From an uncultured Lachnospiraceae bacterium (GTDB lineage Bacteria > Bacillota > Clostridia > Lachnospirales > Lachnospiraceae), in assembly GCA_948989975.1 (NCBI GenBank), contig CARHSH010000001.1, forward strand, positions 274,906 to 286,025: 11,120 nt of DNA. Direction: 5' to 3'. Of this stretch, positions 1,462 through 8,037 are shown one piece after another; position 1 is the stretch's first letter; every line of letters starts with the position of its first letter. Below the pieces are notes generated by a model that was given only the letters and a program-made list of their open reading frames with translations, made no database searches and was not told where the DNA came from. Both the position numbers and the translations under genes were made by a program.

Positions 1462-1475
1462 TTTTATATTTAGAA

Positions 1476-1503
1476 AGCGGCGTTTTTACGCCGCTTTTTT
1501 TGT
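1476..1503 (+). terminator. Rho-independent terminator of the tRNA operon
   Basis: Stem AGCGGCGT (1476-1483), loop TTTT, stem ACGCCGCT (1488-1495), followed by a T-run of 8 (1496-1503). Confidence 0.8.
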
Positions 1504-1605: not shown

Positions 1606-4600
1606 ATGAAAAGAATGGTGGCAATGCTGCTTGCCGGATGTCTGGCATTTCAGACATGGATAGGCAATGCAAAACCGGTGTTTGGGGCGCAGACTGCATC
1701 TGGGTCAGTGGATTTTGGCGAAGCGCAGGCTGCATCTGAGTCAGTGGATTCAGGCAAAGCGCAGAGCGTTCTGGAAGTAGGGGTGCGTTCTTCCGCTCAA
1801 TTCCCATTTCAGGGTGACGTAACCGTACAAATCGGACGTGGCAGCGAAGTAGTGGAATCAAAGGATTTAAAATTTGAGGGTTCTAAGGCTTCCTTTGCAG
1901 CGGCAAGGTTTGAAGTGTCAGAAGGGGATTACACAGTTACTGTGAAGTCAGTCCAATTTGCGGACTATACGCAGGATGTGAAAGCGCAAAATGGCTGGAA
2001 AACCAAGATTTTAATTTCTCCATCAAGAATTGAGACGGGCAATGAAGCGGCTCCGGGCTGGATTCGGGTCGGCGACGTCAATCAAGATGGAGTAATTGAC
2101 CAAACGGACATTGACGGCATGATGTCGAAAATCCGTGAAGGCTCTATGGAAGCTGCCTTTGATCTCAATCAAGATGGGAAAGTGGATATGGCAGATTTGC
2201 AGTATATTGTGCAAAGCATAGATGAACATAGGGAGTCCACAGTGGAGAAGCTTGGCATAGTCCAAACGATCCAACAGGCTGAGGGCGCGACTATGGAAGG
2301 AAACGTCAACGACTTTTTAAATGGAACAGGCGCGCTGAAATTAAAGCCTGAAAATGCAAATGCGCAGATTTCAGCGGAAAATCCTGTTGGGATCAACTTT
2401 ACATTAGTGGAAGATACAAAAAAAGCGGTAGAGATTCAAGGAATTGTCGTTCATGCTCCGGTAACAGATGAACAGGGCGTCATTTCCAATGAAATAACGG
2501 AAGGGGAAGTGATTTATACAGACGCGGAAGGAAAAGAAACGTCGGTTCCGTTTTCTGCCGCGGCAAAGCCAAAGCAAAAGAAGAACAGGGCGCTATTTGC
2601 TGCAAATGCGTCAAACCGCGCGGCGTCTATTTCGGCAGACGTCGAGGCTGACGGTTCGCTGGTGTTAGATTTTGGAGGGCAGATTGCAGTAAAGCGGGTA
2701 ACGATAAAAATTACCGGCACCAAAAAGACAGAGCCTTTGGTGAATATTGCAAAGGTTGATTTTGTCAACGATATGGAAAATAGGATACCGGCGCCGCAGA
2801 TGGACATTCCGACGCTTGGAGTTCCACAATCCGTAGATAAAGGATTGATTGTATCTTGGAACCCGCAGAAAAATGTGACGGGGTATGAGGTATATATTTC
2901 AGGTCCTGTGAAAAACCAAGAAGAACACGAAACACAGATTGTGCGCGTGTCAAATATTACGCATACAATATCATCTATCAATGACAAACCGCTTTTAAAC
3001 TTTGAAAAATATAAAATAAAAGCGCGTTCTGTCAATGGAGACTGGAGCAGTCCATGGTCAAATGAAGTAATCGGAGAGCCGAAGCCGACGAAACTTCCGG
3101 CGGCGCCTGATAATGTATCTGCGACAGGCGGGTACCGGACGATAGAAGTGTCATGGAAAGACATGGACGACGCAAACGGATACATGGTTTATTATAAAAA
3201 GACAAAAGATGCGGATACAGAGTACCGTCCGGTGATCGAAGGATTTACACAGGTAAAAGAAGGGACCGGAAAAATAAACGCAACGCATTATGTCATTGCA
3301 GGCTTAGAGGACGAAGTGGAATATTCCGTCTATGTCGTAGGCTGGAATGACCTTGGCTGGGGCAGCCCGTCACTGTCAGCATCCGCGCTTACGAAGTTAA
3401 ATGTCCCGCCACAGCTTCCGAATTATAAACTGTTGAATACTTCAAATGGAGAAGGGGCAGTCAGCGCCCATATCACAGCAGCGTCATATGGCGGGCATGG
3501 CGGCGCAAAGATGGTAGGCAGCGCGTTAGATACAGCGGAAAAAAGCGCGCTTGGCTTAGTGGATAATAACTTTGGATCTTATTGGGAAAAAACAGACTGG
3601 GACGATGGCGTGGCTTATCCGGCAGACAATAAGGGATTTACAGTGACGCTGGATCAGGATTACCAGATGAATTTTATCACATTTGCATCCGCGGACGAAA
3701 AAGCAGCGCTTCAATATGCGCGGATTGGGTATTGGAATACAGCGTCTACAGAAAAACAGAACGTGGGCGCGCGTCTGTATAGAAAACTTGACTCAAGGAA
3801 CAATCCATACTATATTATTAAGCTTGATCAGGCAATCACTGCAAATAAAGTAAATATTTGTCTGGGACGTGACAGTGTTAGGGCATCTATGATGGTAGGT
3901 GAAATCCATTTCCATTATTATGATTCGCTGGAAGATGACATTATGGGCTTATATACAGACGAAATGCACGCTACACTGCGGGCAGACGTAACGGAAAGCG
4001 TCATTCAGGCATTAGAAGCCCGTTTAGAGCTTGTAGACGAGGCAAGCGGTGAAAAACATCCGCTTTACAATGAACTGACTTTAGAATTAAAGACAGCAAG
4101 AGAGATTTTAAATTCAAATCTGGCTTGCGCTTATGAAGTGGAAAACCAGATTACGGGAAGCAAAGACGGGCATCTTGGATTTGGCGGTTTAAATTCATGG
4201 CAGCCGGTTGGGAAAACAGTATATGCCGGTGAAAGTCTGCTTGTTTATGTCGGGCATAATACAAAGAGAACCGGAGATAAAGCAAGCCTGCAACTTGTGT
4301 TTACGCAACAGCACGCAGAAGCGGCAACGCTTTCAAAAGCAGTCAGCTTAAAAGTGGGAAGAAATGAAATTACAGTTCCCCAGATTGTCAGCAAAGAATT
4401 TGAACGCGGCGGACAGTTATATGTAGCATATACTGGAAACAACGCAAACGATAAGTATGCAGTCCGTATAAGCGGCGGAAGCGATATTCCGGTCTTAAGC
4501 GTGTATGGAAAAACACAAGAAGAACGCATGGCGGCGATTTCCGCTTATGTAAAAGAGCTTGAGCAATATGTCGGAACGATTGAAGCGGGACATGCGGCAA

Positions 4601-6837
4601 AACATACAGGGACAAAAAATGTAGATTATCCGTATGACCAGCAAAACTGTATTTTAAATACAACAGATATTATGATGAGGGAAATGATGTATTCCGTACC
4701 TGCAACTCAGGTTTGGGCAGGCATCAAAAACGCAGAAGATAAAGCGGTAAAACTTGACCTTGCCCTAAAAGCAATGGAAAAAACTATGACGCTGTTTTAC
4801 CAGCATAAAGGATTAAGTGATAACGCGGGAACCGTAAGAGGAAATAACGCATGGCCGGCGCAGCACTTGAATATCCGTTATATGAGAATGTTTGCCGGAG
4901 CGTTTATGTATGCGTCAGGCAACCACATTGGCGTAGAATGGGGTTCCACATTATTAGCAAGCGCGCCAAACGACTGGTCAGGATTTGGCTGGGGCGTAGC
5001 GCATGAAATTGGGCATGACATCAATCAGGGCGCATATGCGGTTGCGGAAATCACAAACAATTACTTTGCGCAGCTATTGACAAAAGTTCCCGGAAAGACA
5101 AGATTCACATACAAAAATGTCTACGACAAAGTAACGTCAAATACAATCGGACGCTCTCCGAATGTAGCGACGCAGCTTGCATTGTACTGGCAGCTCCATA
5201 TTGCATATGACAATAATAAGGACGACAGACATATTTACGACAACTATGAAGATCAGTTCAATAACCTGTTCTTTGCAAGAGTGGACACTTATTCAAGGAA
5301 TCCAAAAATGGCTCCGCAGGAAGGATTAACGTTAGACGGAGGCTCAGAACAGAACATTATGCGTCTTGCATGCGCGGCGGCAAATAAAAATATTCTTCCT
5401 TTCTTTGTGCGCTGGGGTATGCAGCCAGATGAGAAAACAACTGCATATGCGGCAAAATATGGAGAGGCGGAAACGAAAGCGCTCTATTATGTCAATGACG
5501 ATGCAAGAGATTACCGCGTGGATCATCCAAATGAGGAAGGGACAATAAAAGATCAGGATGCCGTTACTGCAGCTACAGTAAATGCAGCCGGAAATCAGGC
5601 GGAAATCACGATTGCGACAGATCGCAGCGCAGAGCTTATGCTTGGCTATGAAATCAGCCGCAGTATGATTTCAAACGGTAAAAAATCCACTCAGGTAATT
5701 GGGTTTGCGCCGATTGACACAGCGGACTCTACCGTTTTTGTAGACTCCATTTCATCAATTAACAATCGGGTAATGGAATATGAAGTCCGCGCAGTGGATA
5801 AATACTTGAATTATTCCAATGTAAAAACGGCTGGTTCAGTAAAGATTCAGACAGACGGCGTATTAAATAAATCTGAATGGACAGTGGAGACAACAATGAC
5901 TTCGGCTGACGATACTGTAATCGAGCCGGACGGAGAAGATCCGGACAGCGGATATGAAGCGGAAGATCCGGCAGGCGTAGAAGCGAAAAAGGTCAACAGC
6001 ATTACAAGGATTTTAGACAATGACAGGACAGCGGCTGGAACTTATAACGGAGTAAGCGGCGGCGCCGCGTCAATTACCATAGATATGCGTAAGACAGAAG
6101 AAGTGACGGCATTAAAATATCAGGGTTCTGCAGTTGCTTCGGCGGCAGTTGAAGTCAGCCCAGATGGTGAGAATTGGACAAAAGTGAAAGAGAACGTTTC
6201 TCTTGCCGCAAATGCAGAGCAGACGGTATGGTTTGATTCCGTCAATGAAGAAGACCGCAAGAACTGGATTGGCACTTACGATGCGAAATATGTAAGGCTG
6301 ACGCTGTCGCAGGCAGGCAGTATTTCCATTCAGGAAATCGAAATCTGCGGCCCGACAGGGGATAATTTGGAATTTATGGCAACGGAAGAAGGCCAGCCGG
6401 CAATCGGCGTATTGAAGGAAGACTTTACATATGGCGAAGAAGCGGCGGACGTAATTCCGGCAGGCTCATTAATCTTTACCGGGACATATAAAGGAAATCC
6501 GGCATATAATATAGTTGCGCTCTATGATGCAAATGGCAATGTAATCGGGGAAAAAGATGGAAATGTCTCTGCGGAACAAATAATTTTGGCGGACGTTCCG
6601 GAACAAGGAAATCTGGGTGAAACCTCAGACGGAACTTGGGTATATTATGTAAGGCCGGATCAGTGGAATTTAGAAGCGATAAGGAACACAGGCTTCGTGC
6701 GTGGAGAATTATACCGTGTAGACAATGCCCTGACGTTAGAGGGCGAGCGTATTGTCAGTGATACAAAACTGCTTGAGATTCCTCAGGAATTGCCGGATAT
6801 TACGCTTCAAGGAGGTAAGTATGAAAAATTGGATTAA
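1606..6837 (+). CDS. Large secreted multi-modular zinc metallopeptidase (1743 aa): signal peptide, dockerin, 2x FN3, F5/8 type C (CBM32-like), M60-like/enhancin-type HEXXH catalytic region, second F5/8 type C, C-terminal beta domain; likely mucin/glycoprotein-targeting
   Basis: N-terminal MKRMVAMLLAGCLAFQTWIGNA|KP signal peptide. Two calcium-binding segments GDVNQDGVIDQTDIDGMM and FDLNQDGKVDMADLQYIVQSI form a type-I dockerin. FN3 signatures LIVSWNPQKNVTGYEVYISG and IEVSWKDMDDANGYMVYYKK are present. Discoidin-like segment SALGLVDNNFGSYWEKTDW...GEIHFHYY. Zinc motif GVAHEIGHDINQG (HEIGH at nt 5002-5016) with a downstream Glu (AVAEIT) fits a gluzincin. The HEXXH-plus-CBM32 context is characteristic of M60-like peptidases. 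A second discoidin-like segment ITRILDNDRTAAGTYNGVSGGAASITIDM...IQEIEICGP follows. TAA stop at 6835-6837. The protein call is high confidence; the M60 family assignment is moderate. Confidence 0.88.
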   Translation: MKRMVAMLLAGCLAFQTWIGNAKPVFGAQTASGSVDFGEAQAASESVDSGKAQSVLEVGVRSSAQFPFQGDVTVQIGRGSEVVESKDLKFEGSKASFAAARFEVSEGDYTVTVKSVQFADYTQDVKAQNGWKTKILISPSRIETGNEAAPGWIRVGDVNQDGVIDQTDIDGMMSKIREGSMEAAFDLNQDGKVDMADLQYIVQSIDEHRESTVEKLGIVQTIQQAEGATMEGNVNDFLNGTGALKLKPENANAQISAENPVGINFTLVEDTKKAVEIQGIVVHAPVTDEQGVISNEITEGEVIYTDAEGKETSVPFSAAAKPKQKKNRALFAANASNRAASISADVEADGSLVLDFGGQIAVKRVTIKITGTKKTEPLVNIAKVDFVNDMENRIPAPQMDIPTLGVPQSVDKGLIVSWNPQKNVTGYEVYISGPVKNQEEHETQIVRVSNITHTISSINDKPLLNFEKYKIKARSVNGDWSSPWSNEVIGEPKPTKLPAAPDNVSATGGYRTIEVSWKDMDDANGYMVYYKKTKDADTEYRPVIEGFTQVKEGTGKINATHYVIAGLEDEVEYSVYVVGWNDLGWGSPSLSASALTKLNVPPQLPNYKLLNTSNGEGAVSAHITAASYGGHGGAKMVGSALDTAEKSALGLVDNNFGSYWEKTDWDDGVAYPADNKGFTVTLDQDYQMNFITFASADEKAALQYARIGYWNTASTEKQNVGARLYRKLDSRNNPYYIIKLDQAITANKVNICLGRDSVRASMMVGEIHFHYYDSLEDDIMGLYTDEMHATLRADVTESVIQALEARLELVDEASGEKHPLYNELTLELKTAREILNSNLACAYEVENQITGSKDGHLGFGGLNSWQPVGKTVYAGESLLVYVGHNTKRTGDKASLQLVFTQQHAEAATLSKAVSLKVGRNEITVPQIVSKEFERGGQLYVAYTGNNANDKYAVRISGGSDIPVLSVYGKTQEERMAAISAYVKELEQYVGTIEAGHAAKHTGTKNVDYPYDQQNCILNTTDIMMREMMYSVPATQVWAGIKNAEDKAVKLDLALKAMEKTMTLFYQHKGLSDNAGTVRGNNAWPAQHLNIRYMRMFAGAFMYASGNHIGVEWGSTLLASAPNDWSGFGWGVAHEIGHDINQGAYAVAEITNNYFAQLLTKVPGKTRFTYKNVYDKVTSNTIGRSPNVATQLALYWQLHIAYDNNKDDRHIYDNYEDQFNNLFFARVDTYSRNPKMAPQEGLTLDGGSEQNIMRLACAAANKNILPFFVRWGMQPDEKTTAYAAKYGEAETKALYYVNDDARDYRVDHPNEEGTIKDQDAVTAATVNAAGNQAEITIATDRSAELMLGYEISRSMISNGKKSTQVIGFAPIDTADSTVFVDSISSINNRVMEYEVRAVDKYLNYSNVKTAGSVKIQTDGVLNKSEWTVETTMTSADDTVIEPDGEDPDSGYEAEDPAGVEAKKVNSITRILDNDRTAAGTYNGVSGGAASITIDMRKTEEVTALKYQGSAVASAAVEVSPDGENWTKVKENVSLAANAEQTVWFDSVNEEDRKNWIGTYDAKYVRLTLSQAGSISIQEIEICGPTGDNLEFMATEEGQPAIGVLKEDFTYGEEAADVIPAGSLIFTGTYKGNPAYNIVALYDANGNVIGEKDGNVSAEQIILADVPEQGNLGETSDGTWVYYVRPDQWNLEAIRNTGFVRGELYRVDNALTLEGERIVSDTKLLEIPQELPDITLQGGKYEKLD
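1687..1764 (+). repeat. Intragenic 36-bp tandem repeat (2.2 copies, ~85% identity) encoding AQ(T/A)AS(G/E)SVD(F/S)G(E/K) just after the signal peptide
   Basis: gcgcagactgcatctgggtcagtggattttggcgaa (1687-1722) is followed by gcgcaggctgcatctgagtcagtggattcaggcaaa (1723-1758) and then gcgcag (1759-1764). Confidence 0.8.
2071..2223 (+). other. Type-I dockerin module (duplicated DxNxDGxVDxxD Ca-binding loops plus helices) inside the large protease gene
   Basis: Translation GDVNQDGVIDQTDIDGMMSKIREGSMEAAFDLNQDGKVDMADLQYIVQSI is the canonical dockerin duplicated F-hand pattern. Confidence 0.8.
2806..3400 (+). other. Two tandem fibronectin type III modules within the protease
   Basis: W-x-P/K ... GY-x-VY core motifs and conserved aromatic/hydrophobic spacing (VSWNP...GYEVYI...YKIKARSVNGDWSSPWS; VSWKD...GYMVYY...YSVYVVGWNDLGWGSPS). 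Boundaries are approximate. Confidence 0.6.
3430..3921 (+). other. F5/8 type C (discoidin/CBM32-like) carbohydrate-binding module 1
   Basis: ALGLVDNNFGSYWEK...FTVTLDQDYQMNFITF...GEIHFHYY pattern (A-x-DG/N-x-x-T-x-W and a hydrophobic 'ItiDL' strand). Boundaries are approximate. Confidence 0.55.
4130..5530 (+). other. Putative M60-like (enhancin family) peptidase region including zinc-binding HEIGH (nt 5002-5016)
   Basis: HEXXH with a Glu 11 residues downstream. Flanked by CBM32-like modules, as in characterised M60-like mucin proteases. Extent of the catalytic region is approximate and based on absence of other recognisable modules. Confidence 0.5.
5985..6356 (+). other. F5/8 type C (discoidin/CBM32-like) module 2
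   Basis: VNSITRILDNDRTAAGTYNG...ASITIDMRKTEEVTALKYQG...YVRLTLSQAGSISIQEIEICGP. Boundaries are approximate. Confidence 0.5.
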
Positions 6838-7987
6838 ATGTATGTTATTGACAATGTTTCTTATTGTTGCGGCGCCTTTAGACGCCGCAGCGGCAAGCGA
6901 CAGCCAAATGCTTACAGTAGATAAAAATGACGTTATCCTGACCGTAAACCTTCCAGAAGGAAAAACAGATAAGATTACGTCACTCCGTATAAAACTCCAT
7001 GTTTCGGTTCTTTCAGGAACGATGGAACAGCCATCATTTCAGTTTGAGGAATCATTGAACAGCCGGATTAAAGATTCTCAGATCCGGCAGTTAGAGGACG
7101 GAAGCTACCTTGTGGATTTAATTCTTTCAGGAAAGGAAGATCAGGATATTTTTTCTGGAAATGAATCTGTGAAAACAGGAAAATTATCCCTACACCCTTC
7201 CAGTCAGGAATATCAGGCAAAAGTGGAGTTTGCATCCGGAACCGAAGGCAGTAATGAGCCGGTAATTAGATATGTAGATGCAAGCGGTTTGAATGAAATG
7301 TCACTTCTTTTGGACAGCCCGCAAAGCGTTTTCGTAAAAAATGAGACGGCAGAGCCGCCAGCGGAACAGCCGCCTGCCGGTGATCCGTCGGATCAGACGC
7401 CTGTGGAGGAGGCTTTTGGCAAAAAGCCGAAACTGAAAGCGTCACCTGTGAAAGGTTCAAACAGCATTGTGTTTGAATGGAAGAAAGTCGCGGATGCAGA
7501 TGGCTATGAAATTTACCAATACAATGCAAAATCAAAAACTTATAAGAGACTGAAAAAAATCAACAATCCTTCCGTTACGGCATATTCCAAAAAATTCAAG
7601 TATGCTGCGTCTTATACGTTTAAGTTTCGGGCGTATAAGAATAAAGAGGACGGCTCTAAGTCATATGGGAAATACAGCTCGGCTGTAAAGGTCACAACGT
7701 CGCCAAAAAAGGTAACGAAAGTTACTTTAAAAAATACAGAGGCGAAGAAGTCGACCATTTCATGGAAAAAAGTATCGAATGCAAAAGGATACCAGATTTA
7801 CCGGAGTAAGAAAAAAGGCGGAACCTATAAACTGCTTAAAACAATCAAAAAGGGAAAAACGACAAAGTGGGCAGTAAACAAGCCGAAAAAAGGCGGGGTA
7901 TACTATTACAAAGTCAGGGCTTATGTAAAGAATGCGAAGGGAAAACGCATTGACGGTAAGTTCAGTTCCGTAATATCTTTAAAATAG
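6821..7987 (+). CDS. Secreted partner protein (388 aa): signal peptide, ~170-aa beta-rich N-terminal domain of unknown fold (cohesin-like candidate), acidic/Pro linker, two lysine-rich FN3-like C-terminal repeats; translationally coupled to the protease gene
   Basis: Strong RBS AGGAGGT (6810-6816) 4 nt before ATG 6821. The ATG lies 17 nt inside the upstream gene (its stop is 6835-6837). The track's ORF start at 6752 is only open frame upstream of the real start. MKNWIKCMLLTMFLIVAAPLDAAAAS is a signal peptide. Repeats ...FEWKKVADADGYEIYQYNAKSKTYKRLKKI...YTFKFRAY and ...ISWKKVSNAKGYQIYRSKKKGGTYKLLKTI...YYYKVRAY are present. TAG stop at 7985-7987. Confidence 0.85.
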   Translation: MKNWIKCMLLTMFLIVAAPLDAAAASDSQMLTVDKNDVILTVNLPEGKTDKITSLRIKLHVSVLSGTMEQPSFQFEESLNSRIKDSQIRQLEDGSYLVDLILSGKEDQDIFSGNESVKTGKLSLHPSSQEYQAKVEFASGTEGSNEPVIRYVDASGLNEMSLLLDSPQSVFVKNETAEPPAEQPPAGDPSDQTPVEEAFGKKPKLKASPVKGSNSIVFEWKKVADADGYEIYQYNAKSKTYKRLKKINNPSVTAYSKKFKYAASYTFKFRAYKNKEDGSKSYGKYSSAVKVTTSPKKVTKVTLKNTEAKKSTISWKKVSNAKGYQIYRSKKKGGTYKLLKTIKKGKTTKWAVNKPKKGGVYYYKVRAYVKNAKGKRIDGKFSSVISLK

Positions 7988-8005
7988 TTTTTCGCATAAT
8001 AAGGA

Positions 8006-8037
8006 GGCAGTGTTTCGTAAGGGACGCTGCCTTTTTT
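8006..8037 (+). terminator. Rho-independent terminator after the protease/partner operon
   Basis: GGCAGTG (8006-8012) ... CGCTGCC (8025-8031) stem with one G-U pair, then TTTTTT (8032-8037). Confidence 0.75.

Follow-up and report, generated by a model that had tools for sequence, protein, structure and literature searches.

The stretch of DNA analyzed here (the window) comprises 11,120 nucleotides (nt) from an uncultured Lachnospiraceae bacterium and contains two overlapping genes on its + strand. The protease gene (1606..6837) encodes a secreted, 1743-residue M60-like O-glycopeptidase that resembles ZmpB and carries an N-terminal dockerin, as identified from the open reading frame (ORF), Pfam matches and relatives in the PDB. 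The partner gene (6821..7987) encodes 388 residues comprising, from its ORF, Pfam matches and a modeled fold, a signal peptide, a predicted cohesin-like domain, a Pro/Glu linker and two Lys-rich FN3-like repeats. The best explanation of this arrangement, with a probability of roughly 0.6, is a bicistronic enzyme–anchor pair for the surface display of a mucinase. The first gene would yield a secreted M60 O-glycopeptidase with a type-I dockerin near its N-terminus and no anchor of its own, and the second a secreted protein that is retained in the cell envelope and presents a cohesin-like β-sandwich as its N-terminal domain (N-domain). After export, the dockerin would dock in a Ca-dependent manner onto the single cohesin-like domain, and the resulting one-to-one complex would keep the protease at the cell surface. 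In divergent clades, retention would be achieved by a C-terminal transmembrane (TM) helix and basic tail, or by a sorting-like signal, carried on a long flexible linker; in the clade to which the window belongs, Lys-rich FN3 repeats sticking to the anionic cell wall would probably serve instead. The N-domain is a candidate dockerin receptor.

The partner gene starts at an ATG (6821) located 6 nt after a Shine–Dalgarno sequence, AGGAGG (6809..6814, + strand), which lies within the 3′ end of the protease gene. The protease stop codon occupies 6835–6837, and the two genes overlap by 17 nt, as the initial annotation had stated. A TTG at 6752, given as the start in the list of ORFs, is an unlikely alternative to ATG 6821. 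An intrinsic terminator hairpin followed by a U-run is present 3′ of the partner stop codon (8001..8037, + strand), with a fold energy of −26.3 kcal/mol (z −5.55) that was equaled by none of 200 shuffled sequences. On the other side, a two-tRNA mini-operon ends in a terminator with a 12-bp stem and T-run (1472..1499, + strand), which shields the protease operon from upstream transcription. Flanked by terminators on both sides, the protease and partner genes therefore form a bounded bicistronic unit. By its adjacency, overlap and flanking terminators, it is a single transcription unit of neighboring cohesin-like and dockerin genes, the organization of the ClcC/ClcD pair discussed below.

The dockerin (residues 156–205; 2071..2220, + strand) was located by Pfam and by motif search. 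Residues 156–202 match Dockerin_1 (PF00404) with 29.3 bits against a cut-off of 22.9, and two canonical repeats begin at residue 157 (DVNQDGVIDQTD...) and residue 186 (DLNQDGKVDMAD...). The repeats, DVNQDGVIDQTDIDGMMSKI and DLNQDGKVDMADLQYIVQSI, are tandem units of ~22 residues in which an EF-hand-like Ca loop (DxNxDGxxDxxD) precedes a helix, as expected of a type-I dockerin, and both are kept in most orthologs. Together with the M60 match described below, this bears out the initial description of the protein as a 1743-residue HEXXH peptidase with a type-I dockerin. Positions 10–11 are Gln-Thr in the first repeat and Met-Ala in the second, unlike the near-identical recognition residues of both repeats that go with a dual binding mode; asymmetric dockerins are known. 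The second helix of the domain (helix 3, DLxDLQYxVQS) is its most conserved element in all lineages, including those in which a loop has been lost. Because the recognition positions differ between repeats and only helix 3 is strongly conserved, a single binding mode centered on helix 3 is suggested. A search with the dockerin profile for other enzymes carrying this type of dockerin returned only short, generic PF00404 fragments.

One Ca loop is lost in some lineages, the first in certain loci and the second in others (L074, L090, L093, L096; L061, L068, L073), with the helix-3 motif and the partner retained. Such natural half-dockerins could reveal which repeat matters for binding. The loss has a bearing on the function of the domain, as it would fit a dockerin that does not serve protein docking but acts as a Ca-binding stabilizer, or as a glycan or cell-wall binder, next to a functionally independent partner that is merely co-transcribed. 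Many non-cellulosomal dockerins, as Peer et al. are said to have noted in 2009, have no known cohesin, which would also speak for such a role. Nevertheless, this explanation appears very unlikely: helix 3 is conserved even after loop loss, which suggests a conserved interface, and the dockerin co-occurs strictly with a protein of predicted cohesin fold.

The N-domain of the partner (approximately residues 27–175; 6899..7345, + strand) is acidic, with a pI of about 4.5–4.6, and its boundaries follow the predicted fold. It belongs to no sequence family: residues 25–195 gave no match in Pfam or NCBIfam. A model of residues 25–180, calculated with AlphaFold2 (AF2) from an alignment of 10 sequences, is all-β with 11 strand segments (pLDDT 80.9, pTM 0.79). 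A single-sequence AF2 model of the whole partner was poor (pLDDT 55) and was not used. In a Foldseek search with the modeled N-domain, cohesins rank first (OlpC, PDB entry 4dh2, E 6e-4, TM-score about 0.5), and the model appears to adopt the nine-stranded flattened β-sandwich, or jelly roll, of ~140–170 residues that characterizes cohesins. The prediction thus favors the suggestion, made before any fold search, that this domain is a cohesin-like receptor. Failure of sequence profiles to detect a cohesin has precedent, as AF2-based work has described divergent cohesins that evade them and are found by structure searches only (PMC13463774).

The partner domain was sought with HMMER among 1.84 billion representative sequences and was found in 102 representative proteins, always N-terminal and after a signal peptide. 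Three hits of this search (P0064, P0074, P0088) are repetitive proteins with spurious matches and were excluded, and a 178-residue ENA entry (P0003), in which N-domain residues are fused to solute-binding-protein sequence (PF00497), is most likely an assembly chimera. Where the genomic context of close and distant partners was inspected (members at E 1e-4 to 1e-6 included), a large M60 gene lies immediately upstream in all cases, and it encodes a dockerin wherever the gene is complete. An independent metagenome scan, seeded with the M60 catalytic domain only, gave 80 loci at 54–83% identity, all of them within the dockerin-bearing M60 subfamily, so that dockerin-less close relatives do not figure as a control.

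In total, 94 loci, which take in contigs labeled human gut and rabbit, were scored for dockerin, cohesin-like and catalytic domains with purpose-built hidden Markov models (HMMs). The N-domains of this set form 56 clusters at under 85% identity. The dockerin is present in all 82 loci in which the N-terminal part of the protease is covered. A cohesin-like gene follows next on the same strand in 83 of the 85 loci with enough downstream sequence; L085 and L094, the only exceptions, have a cohesin-like copy that is more divergent and was recognized by eye. The pairing of enzyme and partner, first proposed from one pair of genes, therefore holds throughout the informative related loci. Only one cohesin-like domain is present per partner, and the M60 protease is the only protein with a dockerin among the loci examined; the loci thus lack the multi-enzyme organization of a mucinolysome or cellulosome. 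Within these regions of ~20 kb the HMMs, which did not model canonical cohesins, gave no further dockerin or cohesin-like match.

The overlap between the genes is less constant than their order. With start codons chosen heuristically, the distance between the two genes in orthologous loci spans −29 to +214 nt. The translational coupling claimed in the initial annotation is therefore borne out as an overlap in the window and in some lineages, but not as a conserved trait: co-transcription is conserved, overlap-based coupling is not, and strict coupling with 1:1 stoichiometry is a plausible reading of the gene arrangement.

Several observations weigh against a cohesin–dockerin pair. The N-domain falls outside the cohesin family by sequence: comparison with all PDB sequences (phmmer and two profiles, A2 and A7) gave nothing credible and no cohesin, the 64 family members yielded no match to PF00963 at E ≤ 0.1, and an hhalign comparison of the family profile with CipA cohesins gave a probability of 0.15%, a weak negative given the narrow template profile (Neff 1.4). 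Matches to designed armadillo-repeat proteins in the PDB were discarded as repeat-summing artifacts. The fold assignment itself comes from a predicted model, built from only the 10 aligned sequences, and from Foldseek TM-scores of about 0.5. Some lineages without one dockerin Ca loop still keep the partner gene. The window partner has no recognized anchor motif, and its retention at the cell is conjecture. Coevolution speaks for the pair, but weakly: dockerin distances correlate with those of the cohesin-like domain (r = 0.68), and removal of the catalytic-domain signal leaves a partial r of 0.19 (permutation p about 0.001), which is counted as weak support, the partial Mantel statistic being liberal for phylogenetically structured data. 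Finally, the scan for further dockerins and cohesin-like domains covered regions of ~20 kb.

The lack of sequence similarity to cohesins and the limited extent of the scanned loci would both fit a partner that does not bind the dockerin at all. It would then be an accessory surface protein (an adhesin, a substrate-binding protein or a stalk), its fold would be one more bacterial β-sandwich, and the dockerin would use a different cohesin, whose gene would lie elsewhere in this organism or in a neighboring one. The FN3, Big_2 and FIVAR modules found in partners, which are typical of adhesins, point the same way. This explanation is considered unlikely, since adjacency to the dockerin-bearing gene is universal even among very divergent members, the protease lacks an alternative mode of retention, and the 94 loci contain no other dockerin or cohesin-like match with the HMMs used.

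The region C-terminal to the N-domain differs between clades. In the window partner, two Lys-rich FN3-like repeats (residues 205–388; 7433..7984, + strand) match Pfam fn3 and GH85_C, and the tail from residue 191 onward contains 24% Lys and has a pI of about 10. A signal peptide was found, and the description of the partner as a secreted protein with a family-less N-domain and a lysine-rich FN3-like tail holds in all parts. Partners of the same clade end in two or three FN3-like repeats (15–24% lysine, pI about 10), and among the 64 family members such repeats match GH85_C in 39 and DUF4992 in 31, with matches to fn3 as well. A dip in G+C content to 0.37 at 7501–8000 coincides with the repeats, whose basicity may explain it, judging from Lys codon usage. 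In divergent clades, the same position is occupied by a long linker rich in Gly, Ser, Pro and Glu, followed by a TM helix with a Lys/Arg-rich tail. Some divergent partners have FIVAR-like repeats, and FN3 and Big_2 insertions vary. All members of the partner family have a signal peptide, in agreement with the location of a secreted scaffold or anchor.

Two further features of partner homologs were recorded. A short xTGD motif (AVTGD, VDTGD, VGTGD, SKTGD) directly precedes the C-terminal hydrophobic helix and basic tail in loci L060, L074, L092 and L094. The motif recurs and may represent a variant of the sortase sorting signal in the Lachnospiraceae concerned. In locus L012 (5455–8751), the 1098-residue partner P0033 has the cohesin-like domain followed by five repeats, each consisting of a Cys-rich zinc-ribbon-like motif (e.g., HDWKEISRTNPTCTKDGEIQYECSRCKETK) and an Ig-like module. 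Such a composition is unusual in a protein located outside the cell, and P0033 has no Pfam match on record.

With its linker, TM helix and basic tail, the partner of divergent clades looks like an envelope-tethered stalk that would present the N-domain outside the wall, and this layout favors an anchoring scaffoldin over an inhibitor or chaperone. Because orthologs carry a TM anchor at the same position, the Lys-rich FN3 tail is proposed to be a non-covalent retention module that binds the anionic cell wall. The initial annotation had left the choice between a surface anchor and a dedicated inhibitor or chaperone, and the TM or sorting-type anchors of divergent partners now favor the former. 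A partner acting as an inhibitor, pro-domain-like chaperone or maturation factor of the M60 enzyme would bind the catalytic part and not the dockerin. The genes are tightly linked, and overlapping in some lineages, as would suit such a role, and cohesin-like and catalytic-domain distances correlate with r = 0.89, a value that shared phylogeny explains equally well. A dedicated inhibitor or chaperone is, however, highly improbable: signal peptide, globular domain, long disordered linker and TM helix or basic tail form the design of an anchor or stalk, the predicted fold matches cohesins and not protease-inhibitor folds, and the FN3 and Big_2 insertions are variable.

The cargo of the proposed anchor is a multi-domain enzyme. 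It begins with a Sec-type signal peptide (approximately residues 1–28, MKRMVAMLLAGCLAFQTWIGNAKPVFGA; 1606..1689, + strand), recognized by sequence reading with an approximate boundary, and orthologs share its n/h/AxA layout. A lipoprotein reading (LLAGC) was rejected: the h-region Cys varies among orthologs and is followed by an ordinary SPase-I site. Inspection of the protease sequence found no LPXTG motif, TM helix or anchor of its own, and the Sec signal peptide is its only export feature. The M60 catalytic domain (residues 1021–1271; 4666..5418, + strand) matches PF13402 with 39.6 bits against a cut-off of 25.8. The zinc motif of the M60 family is defined as HEXXHX(8,28)E. Here, HEIGH occupies residues 1133–1137 (nt 5002–5016), the third zinc ligand is Glu1148 within AEITNNYF, and the motif residues are invariant across 12 orthologs (alignment A6). 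Profile and motif together identify an M60-like O-glycopeptidase. The best-scoring FN3 module (residues 500–591; 3103..3378, + strand; Pfam fn3, E 1.7e-10, in two stretches) is preceded by a second one, and an F5/8 type C (CBM32-like) module (residues 1470–1571; 6013..6318, + strand; PF00754, 34.9 bits against a cut-off of 28.2) is probably glycan-binding, judging from its family.

The closest solved relatives of the protease are the Clostridium perfringens enzymes ZmpB (PDB entry 5kdj, E 4e-27), ZmpC (6xsz, 1.5e-17) and ZmpA (6xsx, 4.7e-12). Like these structures (5kdj, 7jfs, 6xsz, 6xsx; E 4e-27 to 5e-12), it has an HEXXH...E motif and is multi-modular with CBM32/F5-8C and FN3 modules. In contrast to them, it has an N-terminal dockerin and a co-encoded partner, and ~60% of its length lies outside the matched region. 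It is thus predicted to be a mucinase-type M60 O-glycopeptidase that would act on mucin-type O-glycoproteins. The M60 gene is split into at least two ORFs in loci L005, L037, L056, L057 and L093, and locus L002 is fragmented throughout. The split ORFs could be assembly frameshifts or pseudogenes.

Cohesin–dockerin organization of mucin-degrading enzymes is known from C. perfringens. In Limousia, a cohesin–dockerin “mucinolysome” that includes dockerin-bearing peptidases has been proposed (PMC12997984). The pair described here resembles both systems in that cohesin–dockerin docking would organize mucin degraders, dockerin peptidases included, on gut Firmicutes. Those systems, however, use canonical, HMM-detectable cohesins on multi-cohesin scaffoldins or on enzymes, and many dockerin enzymes, whereas here one cohesin-like domain and one cargo are encoded in one operon. 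Single-cohesin anchoring scaffoldins have also been described, such as OlpA and OlpC of C. thermocellum, ScaE of R. flavefaciens and the TM-anchored cohesin of Ruminococcus sp. HUN007 (PMC13463774). Such anchors serve many cellulosome dockerins and are attached through SLH domains, sortase or a TM helix; the one here is apparently dedicated to one protease, and the window clade uses Lys-rich FN3 repeats, whose anchoring role is unproven.

The nearest parallel in gene organization is ClcC/ClcD of Cellulosilyticum lentocellum, adjacent single-cohesin and single-dockerin genes for which heterodimer formation was shown experimentally (PMC13487519, 2026). The view of the initial annotation that a lone cohesin encoded in an operon with its one dockerin cargo was undescribed is overtaken by this pair. 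In both systems, neighboring genes of a single operon, each with a ribosome-binding site, encode one cohesin (here cohesin-like) protein and one dockerin enzyme in a Lachnospiraceae-type organism, and the dockerin of ClcC/ClcD is likewise asymmetric, suggesting a single binding mode. They differ in several respects. The ClcC/ClcD cargo is a GH5 cellulase; the present one is an M60 O-glycopeptidase whose dockerin is N-terminal. The ClcC/ClcD cohesin is annotated by standard tools and its protein carries CBM3/X2 and no cell anchor; the cohesin-like domain described here is invisible to sequence profiles and its protein has envelope-anchoring features. In addition, the present pair, unlike ClcC/ClcD, is conserved over dozens of species.

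A 2012 survey lists a dockerin in two M60-like proteins and never mentions a cohesin (PMC3267712). Full-text literature searches found no paper naming both ZmpB and dockerin, and no description of this pair when M60, O-glycopeptidase or ZmpB was combined with cohesin or dockerin. The concept is known; what is new is the cohesin-like family invisible to profiles, its one-to-one dedication to an M60 mucinase, the wide conservation in gut Lachnospiraceae, and the two alternative solutions to anchoring.

The remainder of the window holds genes of other kinds. The order on the + strand is a GH13 amylase gene represented by its 3′ portion (146–1114), the two-tRNA mini-operon, the 1743-residue ORF and the 388-residue ORF, followed by genes for a methyl-accepting chemotaxis protein and a DUF4230 protein. 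The tRNA operon, between the amylase and protease genes, has a promoter-like TTGAAA-17-TATAAT with TG at 1199–1227 and encodes tRNA-Tyr(GTA) at 1263–1346 and tRNA-Leu(TAA) at 1377–1462. A riboswitch or attenuator upstream of the protease gene, considered on account of the promoter-like site and terminator, was ruled out, both elements belonging to this operon. The full-length upstream neighbor is a 702-residue GH13 amylase of the neopullulanase or maltodextrin glucosidase type (L001, 2186–4294). The 702-residue ORF is kept upstream in L003 and L005, with no evident functional tie between it and the protease operon.

At the protein level, the window shares 99.8% identity with a contig of the mouse-gut metagenome-assembled genome of uncultured Lachnospiraceae bacterium MGBC163558. 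The exact partner protein is present in 272 blocks of the assembly collection, and the carrier organism is therefore common. A wider claim, to which even odds are given, is that the partner N-domains form an unrecognized, sequence-orphan cohesin family that exists in an obligate one-to-one bicistronic pair with a dockerin-bearing M60 mucinase, in gut Lachnospiraceae of mouse, human, rabbit and other hosts, with two interchangeable envelope anchors (a TM helix or sorting signal, or Lys-rich FN3 repeats). If this is true, cohesin–dockerin display would be far commoner in the gut microbiota than profile-based surveys indicate, and would serve the proteolysis of host glycoproteins in common commensals. 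Single dockerins in genomes regarded as “non-cellulosomal” may likewise have hidden partners in adjoining genes. The two proteins constitute a directly testable system, and a compact, naturally orthogonal cohesin–dockerin pair with many diverged variants could supply a toolbox for protein engineering. M60 O-glycopeptidases cut mucins and other O-glycoproteins, and the release of such an enzyme or its retention at the cell determines who profits when mucus is broken down and at what distance from the host the bacterium sits. Should the pairing be real, a mucinase would be displayed by common gut Lachnospiraceae through a cohesin–dockerin link that is hidden from standard annotation.

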